Source: Hallerella sp. (lineage in GTDB: Bacteria; Bacillota; Clostridia; Oscillospirales; Oscillospiraceae). Taken from it: 64,000 bases of DNA. Shown here piece after piece: positions 3,746-17,154 of the stretch (the first letter of the stretch is position 1; each line of letters opens with the position of its first letter). The stretch lies in the NCBI GenBank assembly GCA_963620985.1, contig CAVFCI010000001.1, positions 26,093-90,092 of the forward strand. Direction: 5' to 3'. The translations under genes and the position numbers were made by a program. A model generated the notes under the pieces. It did not search any database and was not told the DNA's origin. It saw nothing but the letters and a program-made list of their open reading frames with translations.

Positions 3746-3831
3746 GCCGGTGTGATGGAATGGTAGACGTAGCGGATTCAAAATCCGCCGGGGGCGACTC
3801 CGTGTGGGTTCGAGTCCCACCACCGGCACCA
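3746..3831 (+). tRNA. tRNA-Leu (anticodon CAA), CCA encoded
   Basis: Cloverleaf read by eye: acceptor GCCGGTG/CACCGGC; anticodon arm GCGGA-TTCAAAA-TCCGC; long variable arm; T-arm GTGGG-TTCGAGT-CCCAC; discriminator A plus CCA. Confidence 0.85.
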
Positions 3832-3835
3832 GAAG

Positions 3836-3872
3836 ATCCGAGAGTCTCCCGCGGGGAGCTCTCGGATTTTTT
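3836..3872 (+). terminator. Rho-independent terminator after tRNA-Leu
   Basis: Long GC-rich hairpin (ATCCGAGAG...CTCTCGGAT with an inner CTCCC/GGGAG stem) followed by a run of 6 T. Confidence 0.65.
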
Positions 3873-3893
3873 GCCTTTAAAAAGGAGAGAAAA

Positions 3894-4646
3894 ATGGACA
3901 AGCATGAACTTACGGAGCTGTTAAACCGCGTAGCGGACGGGAGCCTGAGCCCCGACGATGCTGCGCTCAAGCTCAAAATGCAGCCGTTTCAGGAGATAGA
4001 CGGCTATGCAAGGGTAGATCACCACAGGGGCATCCGTCAGGGCGTGCCGGAGGTCATATACGGCGAGGGCAAGGCAAGGGAGCATATACTCGGCATAGCA
4101 AAGGCTATGCTGAAAAACGGTCAGCAGACCGTGCTCATAACGCGCCTGAACGAGGAGGCGGCGGAGTATATAAAGGCGCAGCTGCCGCTTGAATACAACA
4201 GCATGGCGCGTATCGGCATCATCGGACCAATGCCCGAGCCCGGCGGCAAGGGGCGCATCGTCGTTGCGACCGGCGGCACGAGCGATATCCCCGTGGCTGA
4301 GGAAGCCGCCATGACAGCCGAGGCTCTCGGCAACGACGTTCTGCGCCTGTACGACGTGGGCGTTTCGGGCATACACAGGCTTCTTTCAAACATGGACAGC
4401 GTCATGACCGCACGGGTCATAATCGCTGTTGCCGGTATGGAGGGCGCACTGCCGTCGGTCATCGGCGGCCTTGCCGACTGCCCGGTGATAGCCGTACCCA
4501 CGAGCGTGGGCTACGGCGCATCCTTCGGCGGCGTTGCGGCGCTTTTGAGCATGCTCAACTCCTGCGCGAGCGGCATGTCGGTAGTGAATATAGACAACGG
4601 CTTCGGTGCGGGCTACCTTGCCAGCATGATAAACCACCTTGACTGA
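3894..4646 (+). CDS. larB: Nickel-pincer cofactor biosynthesis protein LarB (NaAD carboxylase/hydrolase)
   Basis: AIR-carboxylase-like protein starting MDKHELTELLNRV...DHHR...PEVIYGEGK. AGGAGA RBS before the ATG at 3894. The longer track ORF (3804) overlaps the tRNA and its terminator. Confidence 0.8.
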   Translation: MDKHELTELLNRVADGSLSPDDAALKLKMQPFQEIDGYARVDHHRGIRQGVPEVIYGEGKAREHILGIAKAMLKNGQQTVLITRLNEEAAEYIKAQLPLEYNSMARIGIIGPMPEPGGKGRIVVATGGTSDIPVAEEAAMTAEALGNDVLRLYDVGVSGIHRLLSNMDSVMTARVIIAVAGMEGALPSVIGGLADCPVIAVPTSVGYGASFGGVAALLSMLNSCASGMSVVNIDNGFGAGYLASMINHLD

Positions 4647-4647
4647 T

Positions 4648-5403
4648 ATGGAGCTTAAAGATTTTTTTGCCGAACACAATAAAATAGCGCTGGCCTTCTC
4701 CGGCGGGGCGGACTCGGCGTACCTGCTGTACGCTGCCATATCGAGCGGCGCGGATGTGCAGCCGTACTATGTCAGCTCGCAGCTTCAGCCGGAGTTTGAG
4801 CGCAATGACGCGAGAAGGCTCGCGGTAGAGCTGGGAGCTGAACTGCGTGAGATAAGCCTTGACCTACTGCAAGCTGACGAGGTGACGGCAAATCCCGCAG
4901 ACCGCTGCTATTACTGCAAAAAGCGCATCATGGGAGCTGTACGCGAAGCTGCCCGCGCCGACGGCTACGATACGGTAGCAGACGGCACAAACGCCGACGA
5001 CGACGGAGGCGACCGGCCGGGTATGCGGGTGCTCACGGAGGAGGGCATACTCTCACCGCTGAGGCTCTGCGGCATCACAAAGGCCGAGCTGCGCAGGCTC
5101 TCGCACGAGGCGGGTCTGTTTACATGGAATAAGCCTGCCTATGCATGCCTTGCAACGCGCATCCCGACGGGCGAGAGGATAACTGCGGAAAAGCTCAACG
5201 CTGTCGAAAAGAGCGAGAGCCGCCTGTTCTCGCTCGGCTTCACCGACTTCCGCGTGCGCATGCGCGGCAGCGGAGCGCTGCTGCAATTTACGGCGCGGCA
5301 GCATGAAAAGGCCGAAAACGAATTTGACGCGATAAAGGCGGAGCTTTCAAAATATTTTGACACCGTAAGGCTCGATCCGCAGCCAAGGGAGGAGAGCAAA
5401 TGA
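4648..5403 (+). CDS. larE: ATP-dependent sacrificial sulfur transferase LarE
   Basis: PP-loop motif FSGGADS plus CYYCK. Sits between larB and larC. The start is ambiguous: ATG at 4648 or TTG at 4639. Confidence 0.8.
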   Translation: MELKDFFAEHNKIALAFSGGADSAYLLYAAISSGADVQPYYVSSQLQPEFERNDARRLAVELGAELREISLDLLQADEVTANPADRCYYCKKRIMGAVREAARADGYDTVADGTNADDDGGDRPGMRVLTEEGILSPLRLCGITKAELRRLSHEAGLFTWNKPAYACLATRIPTGERITAEKLNAVEKSESRLFSLGFTDFRVRMRGSGALLQFTARQHEKAENEFDAIKAELSKYFDTVRLDPQPREESK

Positions 5404-6566
5404 AAACGCTGTACATCGACTGCGCAATGGGCTGCGCCGGTGATATGCTCACCGCCGCGCTTCTGGAGCTGCACCCGAATAAAAATGACTTTATCGACCG
5501 CATGAACGCGGCGCTTGACGGCAGGGCGCAGCTCTACGTCAAGCCGGACTTGAAATGCGGCATAAGCGGCACTCATGTCACTGTTGTCATAAACGGCAGC
5601 GTGGAGGGAGAGCCGGAGCAGCACCGCGAGCCGCAGCACACGAGCGTTTCGGAGATAATGGAGTTTATAGATACCGTCCCGCTTTGCAGCGAGGTGAAGG
5701 CAGACGCAAAAACGGTGTATTCTCTCATAGCCGATGCCGAGAGCAGGGTGCACGGCTGCCCCGTCGGGAATGTGCATTTTCACGAGCTCGGCTCGCTCGA
5801 CGCGCTGGCGGATGTTCTGAGCGTGTGCGAGCTGATGCATGAGCTCGCGCCCGAGAGGGTGCTTGCCTCGCCGGTGAATGTCGGCTCGGGCTTTATAAAG
5901 TGCGCTCACGGTGTGCTGCCCGTTCCCGCGCCCGCAACAGAGCTCATACTGCGCGGCGTTCCGATATATTCGGGGCAGATAAAGTCCGAGCTGTGTACGC
6001 CCACGGGCGCTGCACTGCTGCGGCACTTTGCCGAGGACTTTGTCCCGCTGCCGCCGCTCAGGGTCGAGCATGCCGGCTGCGGTACGGGCAGCAAGAGCTT
6101 TGAGGCGGCAAACGTCGTGCGCGTTCTGCTCGGCGAGACGGAGAATGAAAGTGAGCAGATAACGGAGCTTGCCTGCAATCTTGACGACATGACGCCCGAG
6201 GAGCTTGCCTTTGCGATGGACGAGCTGTTCAGACTCGGTGCACTGGATGTGTATTTCACCGATATAGGCATGAAAAAAAGCAGGCCCGGCGTGATGCTCA
6301 GCTGCATATGCCGCGAGGAAAAGCGCGATGAGCTGCTCAGATGCATCTTTAAGCACACAGCGACCCTCGGCGTGCGCGAATATACATGCCGGCGCTATAG
6401 CCTTGCGCGCAGCGTTGACACGGTGCAGACGCGCTACGGCTCCGTGCGCGTAAAAACCGCCTCCGGCTTCGGCGTAAAGCGTTCAAAGGCCGAGTACGAT
6501 GATCTGGAAAGGCTTGCGAGGGAAAACGATACGACACTGGCCGAGATAAGGAAGGAATTAATGTGA
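5400..6566 (+). CDS. larC: Nickel insertion protein LarC
   Basis: N-terminus MKTLYIDCAMGCAGDM typical of LarC/DUF111. ATGA start/stop overlap with larE and a GGGAGGAG RBS. Confidence 0.8.
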   Translation: MKTLYIDCAMGCAGDMLTAALLELHPNKNDFIDRMNAALDGRAQLYVKPDLKCGISGTHVTVVINGSVEGEPEQHREPQHTSVSEIMEFIDTVPLCSEVKADAKTVYSLIADAESRVHGCPVGNVHFHELGSLDALADVLSVCELMHELAPERVLASPVNVGSGFIKCAHGVLPVPAPATELILRGVPIYSGQIKSELCTPTGAALLRHFAEDFVPLPPLRVEHAGCGTGSKSFEAANVVRVLLGETENESEQITELACNLDDMTPEELAFAMDELFRLGALDVYFTDIGMKKSRPGVMLSCICREEKRDELLRCIFKHTATLGVREYTCRRYSLARSVDTVQTRYGSVRVKTASGFGVKRSKAEYDDLERLARENDTTLAEIRKELM

Positions 6567-6608: not shown

Positions 6609-6637
6609 TTGCATTTCTCTGCCGGCAAAGCTATAAT
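6609..6637 (+). promoter_or_regulatory. Sigma-A-like promoter for the TIR-LRR gene
   Basis: TTGCAT, 17-nt spacer, TATAAT, about 24 nt upstream of the ATG at 6661. An AGGAGAG RBS follows. Confidence 0.4.
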
Positions 6638-6660
6638 TACTCTGTCAAAAGGAGAGAACA

Positions 6661-8220
6661 ATGAACGATTTTGAGTATTTCAAGCCCTACGAGGGCGATA
6701 AGCCATACATATTTATAAGCTACGCTCACGCAGACGATGATATCGTCCTGCCCATCGTCAGCGATATGCACAGGCGCGGCTATAACATCTGGTACGACGA
6801 GGGGATAGAGGTCGGCAGCGAGTGGCAGGAGTGCATAGCCTCGCACCTTGCCGATGCGCACCTTGTCGTTGCGTTCATATCCAACGCATACATGCGCTCG
6901 GATAACTGCCGCCGCGAGATGCACTATGCGCAGTCGAAAAAAATAAAGACCATAAACATTTTCGTCGAGGATACGGCGCTCACGCCGGGCATGGAGCTTC
7001 AGATAGGCAACATCTATGCGCTGATGAAATACACATATCCAAACGACGAGTATTTTTACGATAAGCTGTACAGCGCACCGCTTTTAAACAGCGAAAATTT
7101 TGCCGATTCAGCTCCGCGTCCGACGACCGAGACGCAGAAGGCAGCGCCCGTGCCGCCTCCTAAAAAGAAGGAGAAAAAGGAAAAGAAAAAACGCGGCAAG
7201 GCCAAAAAAATAATCGGCTGGTCTGCCGCAGTCGTCGTGTTCGGCCTCGTGCTGGCCGCGCTCATCGTCGGATATTTCACCGGCTACCTCGAAAAGCTGC
7301 TCACGCCGACGACGCAGATAGAAACGCTTGCCGACGATACGGTGTGCGAGTTTAAAAACAGCATTTTTGAAAGCGCCGCGCGCGAGTACACGGGCAAGAC
7401 CGACGGCGATATCACCGTCGGCGAGCTGAAGGGACTTACCGCGCTGTACATCGTCGGCGATGAGTACAGCCTCAGCGAGCCGGTCTCCGGCATCGGACAG
7501 GTCAGCCAGAGCGACAAAGCTGCGTCATATACCGACTGGCAGGGCAGCGAGAAGACCGTCAGCCGCGGCAGCGTCAGCGAGCTTTCGGACATTGCCTACT
7601 TCACTGGACTCAAGACACTGTGGCTTCAGTATCAGAGCCTCGGCAGCCTCGACACTATGCCGGCCTGCTCGATAACGAGCCTGAGCCTCGACGGCAGCAG
7701 GGTGACCGACCTGACCGGCATCGGCAATCTGCCGAAGCTGAGAACGATAAGCGCAGACTATGCTCCGCTCAGCTCGCTCGGCGACCTCAAAAAGTGCCAT
7801 GAGCTCACCCACGCTTCGTTTATCGGAGCGAGCGTCACCGATCTTTCGGCCTTCAAACCGCTTACGAAGATACAGTCCGTCGCGTTTTCAAACTGCTCGC
7901 TGAGCGATATCTCGCAGGTGCTGGATATGAGCTCGCTGCGCAGCGTAAAGCTCTATGACTGCAACCTCAGCGGCAGCTTCTTCAGCTCCTTTGACCGCGA
8001 GCGCGCGATAACGGAGCTTGAGCTCGTAAGCTGCACGGTGGATTCGACGAGCGGCCTTTCGGACTTCACGGGTCTGACCATGCTGCGCCTTACGGGAACA
8101 CGCGGCGTTTCCGACTGGTCGGAGCTCGACTCACTCACGGCCCTCAAGACCGTGTACATTGACGAGGGCCTTGCCGGCAGCTTCACCGGCGAGCACGGCT
8201 TTGAAGTTATAACAGAGTAA
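6661..8220 (+). CDS. TIR domain / single TM / leucine-rich-repeat protein
   Basis: aa ~14-135 is TIR_2-like (YIFISYAHADD, GYNIWYDEGI, GSEWQECIA, VVAFIS, NCRRE). A Pro/Lys-rich linker ends in KKKEKKEKKKRGKAKK. TM helix AAVVVFGLVLAALIVGYFTGYL. The C-terminal ~200 aa carries 8-9 internalin-like ~22-aa LRRs (LxxLxxLxLxxxxVTDLS). Confidence 0.8.
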   Translation: MNDFEYFKPYEGDKPYIFISYAHADDDIVLPIVSDMHRRGYNIWYDEGIEVGSEWQECIASHLADAHLVVAFISNAYMRSDNCRREMHYAQSKKIKTINIFVEDTALTPGMELQIGNIYALMKYTYPNDEYFYDKLYSAPLLNSENFADSAPRPTTETQKAAPVPPPKKKEKKEKKKRGKAKKIIGWSAAVVVFGLVLAALIVGYFTGYLEKLLTPTTQIETLADDTVCEFKNSIFESAAREYTGKTDGDITVGELKGLTALYIVGDEYSLSEPVSGIGQVSQSDKAASYTDWQGSEKTVSRGSVSELSDIAYFTGLKTLWLQYQSLGSLDTMPACSITSLSLDGSRVTDLTGIGNLPKLRTISADYAPLSSLGDLKKCHELTHASFIGASVTDLSAFKPLTKIQSVAFSNCSLSDISQVLDMSSLRSVKLYDCNLSGSFFSSFDRERAITELELVSCTVDSTSGLSDFTGLTMLRLTGTRGVSDWSELDSLTALKTVYIDEGLAGSFTGEHGFEVITE

Positions 8221-8226
8221 AGACTA

Positions 8227-8250
8227 CCCCGAGTGCTTCGGCACTCGGGG
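8227..8250. terminator. Hairpin between convergent genes
   Basis: CCCCGAGTGC-TTCG-GCACTCGGGG, a perfect 10-bp stem. There is no strong T-run on either side. Confidence 0.45.
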
Positions 8251-8257
8251 TAATGAT

Positions 8258-10353: not shown

Positions 10354-10929
10354 CTAATTGTTATTCAGGTAAACGCTCAGGTCAAGGTCGGACAGGGGGA
10401 TGAGGTAGAAAAGATATTCGTCTCCCCAGCAGGCCTTCACCCAATACACGGTCTCGGGGGCGGGCTCGTCGATCACATAAGTGCGCTTGCCGCCGCCAAG
10501 CTGCAAAACGGAATCGGCATTTCCCGTGCGGAGCTCATCTGTGGGCGAAAAGCTTTCGCCGAAGACGTAGACCGTGACCTTATCGGGGGCTTTGTGGCCG
10601 TGCTCAAAACGCAAGGTGATGGGAGAACCGGCCGCCGAGTCGGGTATTACATGGTCGAATACGCCGACGGGATATTTTCGGCCTCCGTCAGGAAGACGTG
10701 TTTCCATGTACAGCTCAGAACCCTCGTCAAGAGGATGTTTAGGTGTCATCCACTTATAGCCGACACAGCTCGGGTTATCGTATACGGCAGTGCTGCCGTC
10801 TGCGTTGGTGTATTCGGCTTCGAGCTTTACGAAATAATGACCGTCCTCATGAGGTATCAATGCTATGACGATCGCCGCGATAACCGCCGCGATACCGAAT
10901 GCTATCCATATGTGTTTTGATTTTGACAT
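10354..10929 (-). CDS. Hypothetical membrane-anchored protein
   Basis: N-terminal TM helix (IWIAFGIAAVIAAIVIALI) then a ~160-aa soluble domain. The GGAGG RBS lies inside the first codons of the track ORF, so the second ATG (MSKSK) is preferred as the start. Confidence 0.55.
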   Translation of the reverse strand: MSKSKHIWIAFGIAAVIAAIVIALIPHEDGHYFVKLEAEYTNADGSTAVYDNPSCVGYKWMTPKHPLDEGSELYMETRLPDGGRKYPVGVFDHVIPDSAAGSPITLRFEHGHKAPDKVTVYVFGESFSPTDELRTGNADSVLQLGGGKRTYVIDEPAPETVYWVKACWGDEYLFYLIPLSDLDLSVYLNNN

Positions 10930-10943
10930 GTTTACCTCCATTG

Positions 10944-12155
10944 TTATTTAGGCAACCAAAGTGAGTAACTTAGACTTGCGCTATTTGCAGAAACATAAAA
11001 TGACGTAGCACCGGATAGAGGAATGTTGAAAGAAACATCATACTGTACATTTGAGGTTACAGTATAATTTGCCGAATGAGCTGAGCCCGGATTATAAATA
11101 TTAAATCCCGCAGTCATACCGGATTTGTCAAGTACAACAGTGCCGCTTGATGAAGTATATTTGCACGTTACAGTACCTTTTGCGCCAGTAGTAGTTGATG
11201 TCAGAGAGCCCTTTAGACTGCTGAGTGCAGCGTCAAATGTGTTTGTCGGGAGTCCAAATGCTGACAGGAAGTCAATTATTAGATTCTTTAATAATGTGCT
11301 ACCTTTACCTGCATATGCATTGGAAACACTGTCCAGCGAAAGGACGCTACTGATTTCCGAATTTGAATTTCGAGAAAGCGAAATGGTTATTTTGCTTACA
11401 TATACTTTGCTAACAGTAGAGTTGGCATTGTCGTAATATGTTTTTACAGCACTAATATAAGTTTTGACCTGTGTACCTATTCGTTTGGCATTTGAAGCAT
11501 AGTATACAGACAATGTTTGCCCGTTAACAGATGAAACATTAGCTAGCTTTTTGGTAATAGACCCTTTCTTCACAAAATTTGCATCAACCTCAAGCGGAGA
11601 AACTTCTTCGTCAGAAGGAGAAATAGGTGCGGACTCCAACGAGACATTTGGCCTTACAACATCGACATCATCGGCCATAACACGTTCGCCGAAGGCAAAC
11701 ATAATCTGTGTATCGGAATCAATTAAAGGATTAATAACTATTCCTGCGTTGATTTTGTTTTCACCAACCGATTTTGTAAAACCGGCTGTGAGCGGCAGAT
11801 TGATTTCGCCTATTGAAATTTCGCCGTAGAGAGGTCCGTTCAATATGCTCGAGCCGTCAGTAAGCTCAAGAAGATCAACATCGCCAGCGGCGGTTAAAAG
11901 ATAATCGTTTTCTCTTACACTTATCGTAGCAGACATGCTTACATGGAAAATGTCATCTTTCATGGTGCGCGAAACGTTGTAATTATATTCCGCATCAGCA
12001 TTTCCGGTACCAAAAAGAGCCTCAAATTCATCATTTGTTATAGCGGCTATGGAACTGTTTCCATGCAGAGCAATGCCGTCCGCAAAAGCTGTCACGCCCA
12101 GTGACATCATAATAGCAAATATAAGGACGAAGCACAAGAATTTTCTAAACTTCAT
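10944..12155 (-). CDS. Hypothetical secreted protein, Ser/Thr/Asn-rich, low-GC gene
   Basis: 403-aa ORF with a signal peptide (MKFRKFLCFVLIFAIMMSLGVTAFA). No motif recognised. GC is clearly below the flanks. Confidence 0.55.
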   Translation of the reverse strand: MKFRKFLCFVLIFAIMMSLGVTAFADGIALHGNSSIAAITNDEFEALFGTGNADAEYNYNVSRTMKDDIFHVSMSATISVRENDYLLTAAGDVDLLELTDGSSILNGPLYGEISIGEINLPLTAGFTKSVGENKINAGIVINPLIDSDTQIMFAFGERVMADDVDVVRPNVSLESAPISPSDEEVSPLEVDANFVKKGSITKKLANVSSVNGQTLSVYYASNAKRIGTQVKTYISAVKTYYDNANSTVSKVYVSKITISLSRNSNSEISSVLSLDSVSNAYAGKGSTLLKNLIIDFLSAFGLPTNTFDAALSSLKGSLTSTTTGAKGTVTCKYTSSSGTVVLDKSGMTAGFNIYNPGSAHSANYTVTSNVQYDVSFNIPLSGATSFYVSANSASLSYSLWLPK

Positions 12156-12173
12156 TTTTGTTCTCCTTTGTTT

Positions 12174-12596
12174 TTAGTATTCGGCATATTCGGTGATAGT
12201 GATGGCTTCCGTGTTTTTTGCGTACAGTGTGAATGTTGTCGTGCAGCGGTAGCTGCCGGAGCCGGTGAGCTGCTTTTTAAATGATGTTATCATTCTCGAA
12301 GAGCTTGCGCTGTGGTAAATGTAATTATCTGAGGTGCCGACATTTACCTTGACCCACTTGGTTCCGGACTTTTTTTCGATACAGGTCTTTGCCTTGATCT
12401 TTGTTACATCACTTTTGCCGGAGCATATGAGATTAACAGACGCGCTTCCGCCTTCGGCAATGCGAAATGTAACAGTAGGCTTTGTCGCGTACAGGCTTTG
12501 AAGCTCAATGCCGCCGGACGGCTGCGCGGCATATGCGGAAACGGGCACGCCGGTGACGATCAAAAGACTCAGCATCAGACAGGCGATCCTTTTCAT
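12174..12596 (-). CDS. Hypothetical small secreted protein
   Basis: 140-aa ORF with a signal peptide (LLIVTGVPVSAYA). First gene of the minus-strand run of three secreted/membrane-protein genes (10354-12596). GGGAGGGA RBS. Confidence 0.55.
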   Translation of the reverse strand: MKRIACLMLSLLIVTGVPVSAYAAQPSGGIELQSLYATKPTVTFRIAEGGSASVNLICSGKSDVTKIKAKTCIEKKSGTKWVKVNVGTSDNYIYHSASSSRMITSFKKQLTGSGSYRCTTTFTLYAKNTEAITITEYAEY

Positions 12597-12938: not shown

Positions 12939-12970
12939 GTCAAAAAAGTCTCGCGATGGACTTTTTTGAC
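12939..12970. promoter_or_regulatory. 12-bp inverted repeat GTCAAAAAAGTC-N8-GACTTTTTTGAC
   Basis: Perfect arms. The 8-nt loop contains the ATG at 12956 that opens the track ORF. Confidence 0.55.
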
Positions 12971-13018
12971 AGGCTCAAGATAGACTGTCATCGGAACAGG
13001 GGGGAGAGTGCCTTGCTG

Positions 13019-13588
13019 ATGCTTTATGCAGCCGTCATTGACGATGCGGCTGAAATGAAAAGATTCGAAAAGATATATTATGAATATCGTGATCAGATGT
13101 TCTTTGTCGCAAATGATGTCCTGCACGATGAGCACGAGGCCGAGGATGCTGTGCAGAATGCCTTTATCGGCATAGCCAGAAACATAAGAAGCCTGCCGAC
13201 CGATGATAAGCGCATAGTGCGTGCGTATACGCTGACGGCGGCGAAGAATGCGGCGCTCAATCTTCTTCCGCAGAAACAGCGGCGCGATATGCAGCTTGAT
13301 ATAGATGAGGTGGATATTGCCGCCGACGAGGATGTTTTTGCTCAGATCGCGGCCTCCGAGGACAGAGAGACGATATCAAAGGTGATAGGGAAGCTGCCGG
13401 ATATATACAGAGACGTGCTGCTGCTGCGCTGTGTCTGCGGACTTAAAGCCGCGCAGACGGCGCAGCTGCTCGGACGAAAAAAGGCGACTGTCGAAAAGCA
13501 GATGGAAAGAGCGCGAAAGCTTGTGGTCAGGCTGTGCATCGAGGAAGGGATGGTGCTTAAACGTGGAAAAAACGATGACGGTATTTGA
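13019..13588 (+). CDS. ECF-type sigma-70 family RNA polymerase sigma factor
   Basis: Region 2 (FEKIYYEYRDQMFFVANDVL, DAVQNAFIGI) and region 4 HTH (YRDVLLLRCVCGLKAAQTAQLLGRKKATVEKQMERARKLV). The ATG at 13019 follows a GGGGGAGAG RBS. The alternative start at 12956 sits inside a hairpin. Confidence 0.8.
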   Translation: MLYAAVIDDAAEMKRFEKIYYEYRDQMFFVANDVLHDEHEAEDAVQNAFIGIARNIRSLPTDDKRIVRAYTLTAAKNAALNLLPQKQRRDMQLDIDEVDIAADEDVFAQIAASEDRETISKVIGKLPDIYRDVLLLRCVCGLKAAQTAQLLGRKKATVEKQMERARKLVVRLCIEEGMVLKRGKNDDGI

Positions 13589-14330
13589 AAACGCACTTTT
13601 GAATAAGACGCTGCAAGGCTTTGACTATGTCCCTGACGCAGAGAGCATAAAGCATGAATTTTCCCCGCGCTTTGAAAGAGAAGCCCGAGGGCTCATCAAA
13701 AAAAGCGCCTCGAATGTCTGGCACTGCGTGAACACGACCGCAAAAAAGCTGCTTATCGCGGCGATAATAGCGGCGCTGCTCACGGGCACGGTTTTTGCCG
13801 TCCCCGCGCTGAGGGAGGGGCTTATCAGAATGTTTATTCATGACGACGGCAGCATGTATTCCTTCAGCGTTGACCGGAGCATGATAGCAAACGCGCCGAC
13901 GGAGATCGAAACGGCCTATTCTTTGACGTATATTCCTGATGGCTATGAGCTCGTTGACACAGTAGCTGTCCGTGAAGGTGTCGTATTACTTGACTATATG
14001 GATGAAAACGACGGCTGGATATGGTTCATGCAGGAGACCGTCACGCAGGATCCTCGCAATAAGCTCGGCGGACTGTCGGATTCCGAACGCTCGGAGCTTG
14101 AGCATGTCGTGCTCAACGGCTATGAGGTGATACGGATAGTCCACGAGGAAGGCGAAGTAGAGTTCTTGTGGACGGATGACAAGTATTTCTTCGAGCTGTT
14201 CTGCTCAAAGGGCGGCATCGACGAGGCCGAAAAAATATTCTACGGCGTAAAGCCCGATGCCCCGCTCACGCAGAGGATAGCAAACGGCGAAAGCATAATG
14301 GAAGGCAAACATGTCATGGATTTGGATTGA
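13575..14330 (+). CDS. DUF4367-type putative anti-sigma factor (single TM)
   Basis: Overlaps the sigma gene stop. Short cytoplasmic N-terminus, TM helix (LLIAAIIAALLTGTVFAV), then an extracytoplasmic domain with the YIPDGYEL motif typical of DUF4367. Confidence 0.65.
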   Translation: MTVFENALLNKTLQGFDYVPDAESIKHEFSPRFEREARGLIKKSASNVWHCVNTTAKKLLIAAIIAALLTGTVFAVPALREGLIRMFIHDDGSMYSFSVDRSMIANAPTEIETAYSLTYIPDGYELVDTVAVREGVVLLDYMDENDGWIWFMQETVTQDPRNKLGGLSDSERSELEHVVLNGYEVIRIVHEEGEVEFLWTDDKYFFELFCSKGGIDEAEKIFYGVKPDAPLTQRIANGESIMEGKHVMDLD

Positions 14331-14342
14331 TACTGAATACTG

Positions 14343-14380
14343 ACCGCGTTTTTCCGCTTCGGAAAGGCGCGGTTTTTGTT
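14343..14380 (+). terminator. Rho-independent terminator
   Basis: ACCGCGTTTTTCCG-CTTC-GGAAAGGCGCGGT followed by TTTTGTTG. Confidence 0.65.
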
Positions 14381-14419
14381 GTGTCTTATTAAGAAAGCTG
14401 ATATAATAAACTGATTAAA

Positions 14420-14585
14420 TACTGCCTGCGGTGCTGCATGACGCAGCCTAACAAGGAATTCGGTGCAAATCCGAAGCAGTCCCGCTGCCGTGAATGGCGA
14501 CGAGGGCGCATTGGCCACTGTTTTTAAACTGACGGGAAGGCGCGCCTGAGCTTGACCCATGAGCCGGAAGACTTGCCGCAGCGCG
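14420..14585 (+). promoter_or_regulatory. Cobalamin (B12) riboswitch
   Basis: P1 halves CTGCGG (14426) and CCGCAG (14576). Core GGTGCAAATCCGAAGCAGTCCCGCTGCCGTGAA, a GGGAAGG element, and B12 box GAGCCGGAAGACTTGCC (14561-14577). Confidence 0.8.
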
Positions 14586-14703
14586 TGTGTTTGAAATTCT
14601 GAGGAGGTGGGATATATGCGCGAGGACGCATGGACGCTCAATATTACCTACGAGTAGAGCTGAAAAAAAGAAAAACCAAAACAATTTACTTGGAGGTAAA
14701 AAC

Positions 14704-17154
14704 ATGAAAAAAAGATCACTGAGCCTGCTTCTGGCTCTCTTAATGGTGCTCAGCCTCATCGTGCCCGGCACGGCGGCATTTGCCGACGATGCCTCGCAGT
14801 GGCCGAGCTTCCGCGGCAGCGATACGAACATGGCGATAAGCGCAGCCGAAACTCCGGCCGACGCGCAGCACACAACGCTCAAGTGGGCAAACACACTTTC
14901 CAGCGATTGGAGCAAAGCACCCTCCGCGCCGATAATCGCCGGCGATAAGCTCGTCACCCTGTGCGGCGATGAGCTCACGCTGCTCTCGCTTGACGACGGC
15001 AGCGTTGTAAAAACGGCAAAAATGCACAGCAGCACAAGCTTCGGCCTTGCAGCTGCGACCTATGCCGGCGGCCTTATCATAGCTCCGCTGGACAAGGGCG
15101 GCATCGAGGCCTTTGATGCCGAAACGCTTGAAAGCAAATGGGTCTATACCGATGAGCTCGGCGGACAGGCATCCTCTCCCGTTCTGTATTCCGACGGAAA
15201 GCTCTATGTCGGCTTCTGGAACAATGAGACCGAGGATGCAAGCTTCGTCTGCGTCGATGCCGAGACCGGTAGCCTCGACTGGAGCTATACCGTAAAGGGC
15301 GGCTTCTACTGCGCAGGCGCTGTCGCGGTCGGAGATTTTGTGCTTGTCGGCAGCGACGACGGCGCTAAGGGCTCCGAGGGCGACGGTATGCTGCGCGCAT
15401 TCAAAAAGAGCTACGCGGCAAGCGAGGAGGTTAAGCCCGTATCGAGCGCCGCGCTCACCGGCTGCGGCGATGTGCGGTGCAGCCTAGCATACTCCGACGG
15501 CAGGGTCTACTTCACCACCAAGGGCGGCTATCTCGGCTCGGCAGCCGTTGACGGTGCATCAGGCGCGATAGACGATGTCAAGACCGTTTCCTTCGGCGCG
15601 CAGAGCACCTCAACGCCCGTTGTCTACGGCGGCTACGTTTACTTCGGCGCGGGCAAGGGCTTTAACGACCCGGGCATGTTCGTCATTGCGGATAAGGACA
15701 GCCTTGAGGTCAAGAACACAGTCGAGCTGAAGGGCTACGCGCAGTGCTCGATGCTCCTGTCAACCGCCTACCTCGAGTCCGAGGGCTATCTGTATTTCTA
15801 CAGCACCTACAATACAACGCCCGGCGGTGTTTCGCTCATAAAGGTCAAGGCCGACGACGTGAGCAAAACGGAGCTTGTCGATATCTTCGACGCGGCAGGC
15901 TATGAAAACTACTGCATTTGCAGCATCATCTGCGATGCAGACGGCGATCTCTATTACAAAAACGACAGCGGCACGATCTTCTGCCTGAGCAATGAGTACA
16001 GCGAGGAGATCCTCGTGAGCATTGCAAACAAGGGCGGCGTCGAGCTCAGCTACGCCTCCGTCACCGCCTCCGACCGCAACGACGACGGTATCATCGACAT
16101 TGACGAGGTGCTGTACGCCGCGCACGATAAATATTACGACGGCGGCGCAGCAGCAGGCTATGCCAGCGCAAGCAGCGAATACGGCGCGTATATCGCAAAG
16201 CTCTGGGGCGACGAAAGCGGCAGCTTCGGCTATTTTGTCGATAACAAAATGGCCATGAGCCTTGGCGACAAGGTCGTGGCAGGCCAGCATGTCTATGCCT
16301 ATGTAAACGCAAACGCATATCCCAATAACGATTCATACGCCTATTTTGAAAGCTCATCGGCAGACACCGCGGCTTATGCGGCAGTGACCATTAAGCTCAC
16401 AGCGCAGAACGGTTATGATGAAAACTGGAGCCCGAAGTTCGAGGCTTATGACAAGGCTCAGCTCAAGGCTTACAGTGCAGACCTCAAGACCGAGGCGGAG
16501 GGCTTCACGGCAGCGTCGCTCGGAAACGGCGAGTATAAGCTCAGCTTCAAGAGCGCCGGTGAGTACCTCGTCGTCGCAGCGGCAGAAAATAACGCGATCA
16601 TCCCCGCGGTGTGCAGGGTAAGCGTTAAGGAAACCGCTGGCTTTTCCGATGTAAGCAGCGACAGCTATTACTACGATGCCGCAATGTGGGGCAGCGCGAA
16701 CGCCGTGGTCAACGGCTACGGAAACGGCGAGTTCCGCCCCGACGGTCAGTGCACCCGTGCCCAGATCGTGAGCTTCCTCTACCGTCTGGCAGGCAGCCCC
16801 GAGGTCAGCGGCGAGTGCAGCTTCAGTGACGTTCCCGACAGCTACTATAAGAATGCCGTTATCTGGGCAGCGGAGAACAAGGTCACAAACGGCACGACCG
16901 CCGATACCTTCTCCCCGAACGCCGTGTGCACCCGCGCACAGGCAATGACCATGCTCTACCGCTATCTCGGCGCACCCGAATATGAGGCCGGCAGCGGCTT
17001 TGCCGATGTCGCCGACGGCGCATTCTATGCCGATGCGGTCATGTGGGCGGCGGCAAGCGGCGTGGCCAAGGGCTATAATGACGGCGCCTTCCGTCCCAAC
17101 GCTGTGTGTACCCGCGCACAGATCGTAACGTTTATCTACCGCGCAGCTGCGTGA
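14704..17154 (+). CDS. Cell-surface PQQ-like beta-propeller protein with three C-terminal SLH domains
   Basis: Signal peptide MKKRSLSLLLALLMVLSLIVPGTAAFA. PQQ-like repeats (WPSFRG..., LSLDDGSVV, AFDAETLESKW, CVDAETGSLDW). Three SLH repeats (FSDV...YYYDAAMW..., FSDVPDSYYKNAVIW..., FADVADGAFYADAVMW...). GGAGG RBS before the ATG at 14704. Confidence 0.75.
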   Translation: MKKRSLSLLLALLMVLSLIVPGTAAFADDASQWPSFRGSDTNMAISAAETPADAQHTTLKWANTLSSDWSKAPSAPIIAGDKLVTLCGDELTLLSLDDGSVVKTAKMHSSTSFGLAAATYAGGLIIAPLDKGGIEAFDAETLESKWVYTDELGGQASSPVLYSDGKLYVGFWNNETEDASFVCVDAETGSLDWSYTVKGGFYCAGAVAVGDFVLVGSDDGAKGSEGDGMLRAFKKSYAASEEVKPVSSAALTGCGDVRCSLAYSDGRVYFTTKGGYLGSAAVDGASGAIDDVKTVSFGAQSTSTPVVYGGYVYFGAGKGFNDPGMFVIADKDSLEVKNTVELKGYAQCSMLLSTAYLESEGYLYFYSTYNTTPGGVSLIKVKADDVSKTELVDIFDAAGYENYCICSIICDADGDLYYKNDSGTIFCLSNEYSEEILVSIANKGGVELSYASVTASDRNDDGIIDIDEVLYAAHDKYYDGGAAAGYASASSEYGAYIAKLWGDESGSFGYFVDNKMAMSLGDKVVAGQHVYAYVNANAYPNNDSYAYFESSSADTAAYAAVTIKLTAQNGYDENWSPKFEAYDKAQLKAYSADLKTEAEGFTAASLGNGEYKLSFKSAGEYLVVAAAENNAIIPAVCRVSVKETAGFSDVSSDSYYYDAAMWGSANAVVNGYGNGEFRPDGQCTRAQIVSFLYRLAGSPEVSGECSFSDVPDSYYKNAVIWAAENKVTNGTTADTFSPNAVCTRAQAMTMLYRYLGAPEYEAGSGFADVADGAFYADAVMWAAASGVAKGYNDGAFRPNAVCTRAQIVTFIYRAAA

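Follow-up and report, generated by a model that had tools for sequence, protein, structure and literature searches.

A bacterial TIR protein with a predicted membrane helix and extracellular leucine-rich repeats, conserved in Clostridia of the gut and rumen

The TIR-TM-LRR protein and its gene

The DNA analyzed here, referred to as the window, is the whole 64,000-nt stretch from Hallerella sp. contig CAVFCI010000001.1, and the gene under study is an open reading frame (ORF) on its forward strand, at positions 6661-8220, that starts with ATG, ends with a stop codon at 8218-8220 and encodes a protein of 519 residues with an N-terminal TIR domain, a single predicted transmembrane (TM) helix and C-terminal leucine-rich repeats (LRR). 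This protein represents a real and uncharacterized variant of bacterial TIR signaling, namely one with a membrane-coupled sensor that is predicted to be extracellular. No description of a bacterial TIR-TM-LRR protein was found in full-text searches of the literature, just as a first-pass annotation of this DNA, made from the sequence without database searches, had named no characterized bacterial example. The ORF list and the translation also agree with that annotation in that there is a single 519-residue gene, every TIR motif quoted in it is present in the translation, and the codon for Glu86, GAG at 6916-6918, was read directly from the sequence. Unless stated otherwise, all features given below are located on the forward strand.

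The TIR domain and its putative catalytic glutamate

Residues 1-145 (6661-7095) are predicted to constitute a cytoplasmic TIR domain, an assignment that is based on Pfam, on a model calculated with AlphaFold2 (AF2), on Foldseek and on a very low ratio of nonsynonymous to synonymous substitutions (dN/dS, see below). The TIR_2 family (PF13676) matched residues 17-109 with E=1.1e-19 and 71.6 bits compared with a gathering cut-off of 28, and the proposal of an N-terminal TIR_2-type domain is thereby borne out. An AF2 model of the TIR domain by itself, computed from a deeper alignment, reached a predicted local distance difference test value (pLDDT) of 83 and a predicted template modeling score (pTM) of 0.82. 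Its strands at residues 17-20, 43-45, 68-73, 96-101 and 119-122 alternate with helices in the manner of a flavodoxin-like fold. Foldseek searches with this model retrieved exclusively TIR domains, with TM-scores of about 0.5-0.65. The TIR domain of TLR15 was the top neighbor (E=3e-6, TM-score about 0.62, 21% identity), and the TIR structures of MyD88, IL-1R and BtpA/TcpB were also among the fold matches. The best sequence matches among solved TIR structures were bacterial only, comprising Cat1, AbTir, which is annotated as a hydrolase of nicotinamide adenine dinucleotide (NAD+), and BtTir.

In HMMER alignments, Glu86 is placed opposite the glutamate of 'WTNYEL' in AbTir (8g83), the residue identified as E208 in the AbTir literature, and opposite that of 'SDWCWDEL' in Cat1 (9mud). 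In the TIR-only model it resides within a helix spanning residues 81-92, consistent with the location of the catalytic glutamate of enzymatic TIRs in helix C. The surrounding SxNCR[RK]E motif, with the family form SDNCR[RK]E, is kept including Glu86 in 213 of 216 relatives, such that the earlier assignment of this residue to the catalytic position holds. Enzymatic TIRs commonly carry a tryptophan at the start of WxxxE. Its place is taken here by Asn82, which is invariant in the family, so that an NxxxE motif, N82-C-R-R-E86 (6904-6918), stands at the position of WxxxE in the alignments to AbTir and Cat1. The first-pass annotation had drawn an analogy to an SxWCxxEL motif, which is correct with regard to the glutamate and masked the difference at the tryptophan. 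In AbTir, the corresponding residue W204 has been described as important for selectivity and for the production of cyclic ADP-ribose (cADPR) (PMC10641520). Owing to the replacement by asparagine, neither product chemistry nor activity can be assumed, while NADase activity of the TIR domain appears plausible from its sequence.

The BB-loop region, residues 46-56 with the sequence DEGIEVGSEWQ (6796-6828), is situated between strand B and helix B. It is near-invariant in alignments A1 and A4 and harbors the one segment to which the TIR model assigns low confidence (residues 49-54). By analogy with other TIR domains, it may serve in self-association. A further motif, PGMExQ, follows strand D and is specific for the family.

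Membrane topology

The TIR domain is connected to the membrane via a disordered tether, Pro-rich and then Lys-rich (residues 146-183; 7096-7209), that exhibits pLDDT values below 50 from residue 150 to 183 and varies in length and sequence across the family. The single predicted TM helix (residues 184-207; 7210-7281) is indicated by hydropathy, by the distribution of lysine and arginine (K/R) and by a model helix at residues 181-207; it is the sole hydrophobic segment (Kyte-Doolittle 2.6), and no N-terminal signal peptide was found in the 519-residue protein. Ten K/R are present in the 15 residues before the TM segment vs. one in the 15 residues after it. Among 216 relatives, K/R counts before and after the helix are 7.5 vs. 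1.3 in the subfamily of the window protein and 5.1 vs. 1.8 in a sister subfamily. Because the bias holds in these relatives, it supports a predicted N-in topology for the whole family, with the TIR domain in the cytoplasm and the LRR domain outside. The first-pass annotation had arrived at the same orientation for the single protein by applying the positive-inside rule to the Lys-rich stretch.

Where the TM helix reaches its outer end there is a GxxxG motif, G204-Y-F-T-G208 (7270-7284). Its residues G204, F206 and G208 are invariant in alignment A1, and of 108 proteins examined from each subfamily, 104 carry the motif in the window subfamily and none in the sister subfamily. It may function as a helix-helix packing motif.

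The LRR domain, predicted to be extracellular

The ectodomain commences with a helical cap, irregular first repeats and a variable insertion (residues 226-300; 7336-7560). In the AF2 model the helices of the cap comprise residues 234-244 and 253-256, and conservation dips at residues 281-300. It continues with a predicted solenoid of about nine regular 22-residue repeats (residues 301-519; 7561-8217), which was recognized by Pfam (LRR_4, E=7.7e-12; LRR_EndoS, E=1e-6) and for which Internalin A was a match among solved structures (residues 296-503, E=6e-18). The AF2 model of the full-length protein (pLDDT 80.9) recovers the TIR fold, the disordered stretch at residues 150-183 and the helix at 181-207. 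From about residue 220 onwards, its pLDDT exceeds 90, and it contains the helical cap, two irregular N-terminal repeats and nine beta-strands that recur every 21-24 residues (319...497). Foldseek searches with the full model yielded internalins (InlF, InlA), the LRR domain of Roco and SDS22. The count of 8-9 internalin-like 22-residue LRRs in the first-pass annotation is in full accord with these results. The ectodomain begins about 15-20 residues outside the membrane, and for this reason the LRR sensor would sit against the outer face of the membrane; the protein ends directly after the LRR domain.

Distribution of the family and selective constraint

Homologs were searched in a collection of 5.8 billion proteins and in GTDB contigs at one genome per species. 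The former contains 606 homologs with the same architecture, and neither length nor domains change among them between 96% and 48% identity. The label of one homolog reads 'TIR domain-containing protein [Oscillospiraceae bacterium]'; the family is uncharacterized, and databases say no more of it than 'TIR domain-containing protein'. A relative is encoded in 409 GTDB stretches. The best 80 of these 409 loci stem from 79 assemblies, i.e., the gene is essentially single-copy, and nearly all of the 80 belong to uncultured Oscillospiraceae/Clostridiales from human gut, rumen and chicken. Near-identical loci (L001, L002, L019, L021, L025 and L039) were also encountered in metagenome bins labeled as Bacteroidaceae, Collinsella aerofaciens, Phascolarctobacterium and Escherichia coli; such labels on loci of Oscillospiraceae type are probably binning or labeling errors.

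An exhaustive search with the TIR domain alone retrieved 13,788 representative proteins when E<=1e-3 was allowed, a figure that falls to 594 at E<=1e-30. A common layout among these matches is an N-terminal TIR domain followed by one TM helix near residue 180-240 and a variable C-terminus. Among 49 proteins with the TIR-TM layout, 30 carry LRR_4 and four carry BspA-type LRRs. The sister subfamily, with proteins of 650-750 residues, is found in Lachnospiraceae, Ruminococcaceae and other Firmicutes. Judging from these sequences, the TIR-TM-LRR protein is no rare oddity; it is a member of a large family that is present in hundreds of species-level genomes, mostly of uncultured Oscillospiraceae, Lachnospiraceae and related Clostridia.

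Tandem arrays of TIR domains of the same clade were noted in archaea, in a 610-residue protein from Candidatus Sigynarchaeota (P0128) and a 1228-residue protein from Methanobrevibacter (P0140). Each contains four tandem matches to the TIR clade with about 31-32% identity, and other representatives contain 2-5 such stretches; these arrays could be pre-assembled oligomers. A soluble protein of 425 residues, helical in its N-terminal region and ending in a TIR domain of the same clade, is encoded at L175:2143-3420 on a contig from human feces that bears the label 'UNVERIFIED: Bacteriophage sp.' (MT836178.1). It is 41% identical to residues 8-118 of the window protein, matches TIR_2 with E=1e-16 and features neither a TM helix nor LRRs.

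Across 20 relatives, identity to the window protein amounts to 63-96% for the TIR domain, 40-93% for the LRR domain and 13-89% for the tether. Values of dN/dS, computed among 13 close orthologs, are 0.028 for the TIR domain, 0.07 for the TM helix and juxtamembrane residues, 0.11 for the ectodomain and 0.135 for the tether, with the lowest value (0.012) in the segment of codons 61-90 that includes Glu86. As far as substitution patterns tell, the gene is functional throughout and under strong purifying selection, with the active-site region of the TIR domain as the most constrained part. The LRR domain as a whole shows no sign of diversifying selection, with a dN/dS of 0.11 and a value of 0.19 for the highest 30-codon segment.

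Flanking signals and gene neighborhood

The gene appears monocistronic and is situated between larC and a convergent DUF1836 gene. A ribosome-binding site, AGGAGA (6650-6655), precedes the ATG by 5 nt. Further upstream, a promoter-like element (6609-6637) was read by eye, consisting of TTGCAT (6609-6614), a 17-nt spacer and TATAAT (6632-6637). The -10 hexamer is perfect; the -35 hexamer agrees with the consensus in just three of six positions, which is why a promoter consensus scan upstream of the gene reported nothing. The promoter-like element is weaker than the first-pass annotation had claimed. The hairpin that had been described downstream was located at 8223-8254 by a scan for terminator-like sites. 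It is GC-rich, contains a 14-bp stem, is common to both convergent genes, and is likely to be a bidirectional terminator of the TIR-TM-LRR and DUF1836 genes, although terminator-like sites in the region are not in excess (three observed vs. 2.3 expected from shuffled sequence).

Upstream neighbors are prmC, a DUF1385 gene, a two-component pair and larB-larE-larC. The downstream side encodes DUF1836 and DegV proteins, a sigma factor of the ECF type together with a protein resembling an anti-sigma factor, a surface protein with SLH domains and ECF/ABC transporters. The larB-larE-larC-like operon directly upstream (3804-6566), with AIRC, QueC/DUF7411-like and Ni_insertion domains, carries nickel-pincer cofactor genes; as it is present in only 7-8 of 13 closely syntenic loci, it is a variable insertion that separates the TIR gene from the two-component genes. 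At 12956-17154, the gene for the ECF-type sigma factor (Sigma70_r2/r4) overlaps that for a DUF4367 protein, possibly an anti-sigma factor, and is followed by a gene for a surface protein of 855 residues. This protein combines a PQQ_2 beta-propeller with three SLH domains, and the latter suggest an S-layer-type envelope in the organism. Three consecutive ORFs (195, 403 and 140 residues) on the reverse strand at 10354-12596 are without a Pfam or PADLOC match.

The synteny with DUF1836 and DegV is kept in 13 of 80 loci, as far as relatives of about 72% identity, and the upstream side is variable. More distant relatives adjoin secA, a gene for a solute-binding protein, pgeF-like, cdd or LysR genes or are located directly upstream of the S10 ribosomal operon. 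A partner conserved within the window subfamily was sought by clustering 677 flanking ORFs from the 80 loci and was rejected, as no cluster occurred in more than 17 loci and all were housekeeping genes. In the window, Pfam and PADLOC scans of about 20 neighbors revealed neither a defense gene nor a mobile element within about 10 genes on each side, and PADLOC did not match any of ten unannotated or surface-related neighbors. A location in a defense island can be dismissed in view of these housekeeping and regulatory neighbors devoid of PADLOC hits and of the insertions beside the gene in close relatives, which are metabolic genes. Full-length relatives are absent from 50,697 phage records, 72,556 plasmids and IMG/VR, and carriage on mobile elements was rejected on these grounds. 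The profile, as derived from sequence comparison, is that of a chromosomal gene that is passed on vertically and keeps its synteny in its clade, and not that of defense-island cargo. The suggestion of a defense role and of defense islands thus found no contextual support in the neighbors of the window gene, in the neighborhoods of its relatives or in collections of mobile elements.

A proposed outside-in receptor

Our preferred reading, to which we give not quite an even chance, is that the window gene encodes a type-II single-pass membrane receptor which signals from outside to inside through an enzymatic TIR domain. A membrane-proximal extracellular ligand would bind to the LRR domain and alter TM helix packing or receptor clustering, whereupon the tethered TIR domains would meet through their conserved BB-loops and, once assembled, would act on NAD+ with Glu86 as the catalytic residue. 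Because the tryptophan of WxxxE is replaced by asparagine, the 2'/3'-cADPR made by AbTir or ThsB may not be the product here, which may instead be plain ADP-ribose plus nicotinamide or else a nucleotide of a non-standard kind. The order of TIR domain, tether, TM helix and LRR domain, together with the predicted N-in topology, supports a logic of the Toll-like receptor (TLR) kind with reversed domain order, in keeping with the TLR-style parts in inverted, type II arrangement that the first-pass annotation had recognized. As for biological purpose, a conserved role in sensing the envelope or the environment seems no less likely than a suicide switch dedicated to anti-phage defense, because the gene is single-copy, vertically inherited, strongly constrained and chromosomal in gut and rumen Clostridia.

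Several points weigh against this outside-in enzymatic receptor. The N-in topology is a prediction from charge bias, and fold searches cannot tell enzymatic TIRs from scaffold TIRs, with the TLR15 TIR domain ranked first. With Asn82 in place of the WxxxE tryptophan, catalysis itself is not guaranteed. No downstream component is encoded near the TIR-TM-LRR gene, and a housekeeping context and strong conservation are compatible with a defense role, too.

A one-component anti-phage sensor acting by abortive infection, the reading put forward in the first-pass annotation, strikes us as unlikely. Here, the LRR domain would bind a phage structure such as the tail tip or the injection machinery, clustered TIR domains would deplete NAD+ and the infected cell would stop. 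The architecture and the catalytic glutamate fit this equally, and bacterial TIR systems in the literature are overwhelmingly defensive. The TIR domain matches the defense models ThsB, PDC-S66, Aga-TIR and SAVED-TIR, but these PADLOC matches are confined to that domain (E 1e-5 to 1e-9) and no full-length model was hit. In the sister subfamily, ectodomains diverge far faster than the TIR domain, as in an arms race, with TIR domains 73-76% identical while the remainder of the proteins fails to align; the LRR domain of the window clade, however, lacks domain-wide diversifying selection according to the dN/dS value given above. A systematic survey of TIR proteins in defense islands does not mention LRR architectures. 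An anti-phage function further conflicts with surroundings free of defense genes and mobile elements, with relatives whose neighbors are ribosomal operons, secA, lgt or purAB and with a single-copy gene that is syntenic in its clade and missing from phage, plasmid and viral collections.

A channel-like module beside sister-subfamily genes

TIR domains of the sister subfamily are about 50% identical to that of the window protein, and the SxNCRRE and PGMExQ motifs are common to both. In nine of ten genomic contexts, the sister-subfamily TIR-TM-LRR gene is adjoined, in several gene orders and with gaps of -20 to +70 nt, by a gene for an unannotated membrane protein termed X (615-635 residues, no Pfam match). 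X has some four hydrophobic segments in its N-terminal part, carries the Rossmann-like motif GFGxxGQA and features 'EHLRWCAF...H.CL.PW' in its C-terminal region. In four of the ten contexts, a further gene, termed C, is found between X and the TIR gene. Its product combines an Ion_trans_2 pore (E=1e-15) containing the K+ filter TVGYG with a Rossmann-like region. Tight clusters of this kind are present at L087:2551-8028, L089:2540-8109, L090:2568-8160 and L172:2521-8163, and further sister-subfamily clusters at L081:10001-13981, L084:8113-12010, L173:4069-8112 and L174:4133-8115.

Similarity to the ryanodine receptor (RyR) came from two sources. All three C proteins scanned gave sub-threshold matches to RyR domains (E=5e-5 to 2e-4), and a joint profile of the cytoplasmic part common to X and C matches ryanodine-receptor repeat structures in the PDB (E=2.6e-6); in X the RyR-like part is the C-terminus, for which Pfam gave no support. 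When the association was examined in reverse, starting from 80 metagenomic X loci, C was adjacent in 40 and a TIR gene was nearby in just five. For this reason we regard X-C, on the basis of gene adjacency, as an autonomous channel-like module beside which TIR-TM-LRR genes of the sister clade prefer to sit. The 64-kb window encodes neither X nor C, no copy of either lies within 8-10 kb of the gene in 81 members of the window subfamily, and both are absent from PADLOC. The adjacency is a hint at an output and no evidence for the window gene.

It is conceivable, if rather improbable, that the window protein forms the receptor arm in a pathway with an ion channel as its output. The TIR domain would regulate an X-C K+-channel module encoded elsewhere in the genome, either through a nucleotide that it produces or by touching it directly. 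Besides the frequent adjacency of X and C in the sister subfamily, the pore and RyR match of C and the similarity of the X/C profile to RyR repeat structures, such an arrangement has a validated parallel in a TIR plus ion-channel defense pair, type X Thoeris, in which ThsB acts together with the ion-channel effector ThsK through a signal that is unknown (Yirmiya et al., bioRxiv 10.64898/2025.12.03.692087, December 2025 preprint). Type X ThsB, however, has no sequence similarity to the window TIR domain, so that identity of the two TIRs had to be rejected, and neither LRR nor RyR is mentioned in the survey of type X Thoeris (bioRxiv 10.64898/2025.12.03.692087). Lack of X and C around the window gene and around its subfamily members, the scarcity of TIR genes near X relative to C and the absence of both proteins from PADLOC likewise speak against this pathway.

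A more elaborate version, which we offer as speculation and consider slightly more doubtful again, envisages a conserved, non-mobile pathway in gut and rumen Clostridia. The LRR receptor would activate its own TIR enzyme, and a nucleotide signal, or contact with the TIR domain, would gate a K+ channel module with Rossmann-like and RyR-like domains, the window protein being a receptor arm that is unlinked from the channel genes. If true, such an LRR-TIR-channel pathway would be a bacterial counterpart of TLRs and of animal signaling from cADPR to RyR.

Scaffold and host-directed alternatives

The protein might also be a membrane-anchored LRR adhesin or organizer with a non-catalytic TIR domain that serves protein-protein assembly like those of animal TLRs and MyD88, and we judge this to be as improbable as a role in an ion-channel pathway. 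TLR15 as the top structural neighbor, the accompanying matches to MyD88 and IL-1R TIR domains and the missing WxxxE tryptophan would all suit a scaffold, and a survey of TIR sequences has reported that the conserved glutamate is not always correlated with enzyme activity (PMC7075850). On the other hand, near-invariance of Glu86 and of SDNCR[RK]E in more than 210 relatives, combined with the lowest dN/dS of the whole gene, is better suited to an active site than to an interface, and the closest relatives with solved structures are bacterial and include the NAD+ hydrolase AbTir. No adaptor-like TIR gene was found near the TIR-TM-LRR gene, and the 64-kb window is free of paralogs. An ectodomain that starts only 15-20 residues from the membrane would, moreover, be poorly placed for adhesion past a Gram-positive wall.

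A Tcp-like function, in which the TIR domain would be aimed at the host and interfere with its TLR signaling as TcpB/BtpA, TcpC and TirS do, would agree with the BtpA/TcpB structures among the fold matches and with a gut organism, but is very hard to reconcile with a TIR domain that is predicted to be cytoplasmic, membrane-tethered and without a secretion signal, with conservation of the family in rumen, chicken and human commensal assemblies and with a context lacking any hint of a secretion system.

Comparison with known TIR and LRR proteins

Like animal TLRs, the window protein is predicted to unite an LRR solenoid outside the cell with a single TM helix and a TIR domain in the cytoplasm; the TIR fold is common to both, and ligand-driven approximation of TIR domains is likely to be a shared logic. 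TLRs, however, are type I proteins with a signal peptide and a C-terminal TIR domain, whereas the window protein is of type II with an N-terminal TIR domain and no signal peptide. Its LRRs belong to the 22-residue internalin/Roco/SDS22 class with a helical cap and not to the TLR type, its TIR domain has bacterial sequence relatives such as AbTir while the resemblance to TLR15 is one of fold, and its family keeps the putative catalytic glutamate and has no known adaptor TIR proteins. The likeness looks like a convergent assembly of the same parts and not like orthology, and the window protein does not qualify as a member of the TLR family.

With AbTir, BtTir, PdTIR and Cat1, the window protein shares the Pfam TIR_2 domain and the glutamate aligned with AbTir E208. 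Those proteins are soluble and have coiled-coil or CARF partners, whereas the TIR domain studied here is tethered through the membrane to an extracellular sensor, and its family has asparagine in the WxxxE motif along with its own PGMExQ motif. A resemblance to Thoeris lies in a TIR domain whose catalytic glutamate could make a signal and, for the sister subfamily, in the K+ channel adjacency that parallels type X. In contrast to Thoeris, the window gene has no adjacent effector (ThsA or other Ths), no partner conserved in 80 loci and a location outside defense islands, and ThsB models match only its TIR domain, and weakly. TIR proteins of Thoeris are described as intracellular infection sensors, whereas the sole candidate sensor of the window protein is predicted to be extracellular. 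The Listeria internalins InlA, InlB, InlF and InlH resemble it by presenting, at the surface of a Firmicute, a helical cap and an LRR solenoid built of 22-residue repeats. They differ from it in that the window protein lacks a signal peptide, an Ig-like inter-repeat domain and an LPXTG or GW anchor and possesses instead an N-in TM helix along with a TIR domain in the cytoplasm; with 37.9 bits against a cut-off of 1600 for NCBIfam internalin_A, it is not a full-length internalin.

Implications

The literature consulted on bacterial TIR proteins regards them as enzymes of the cytoplasm that answer phage infection, whereas the protein described here would need to pass its signal through the membrane. 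Should this be confirmed, no earlier bacterial receptor with TLR logic would be on record, and the combination of LRR domain, TM helix and TIR domain would have arisen independently of animals. The adjacency of sister-subfamily genes to a K+ channel with RyR-like domains provides a concrete route to the downstream step. As a constrained, core-like gene of abundant gut commensals, the TIR-TM-LRR gene could extend TIR signaling beyond anti-phage defense.

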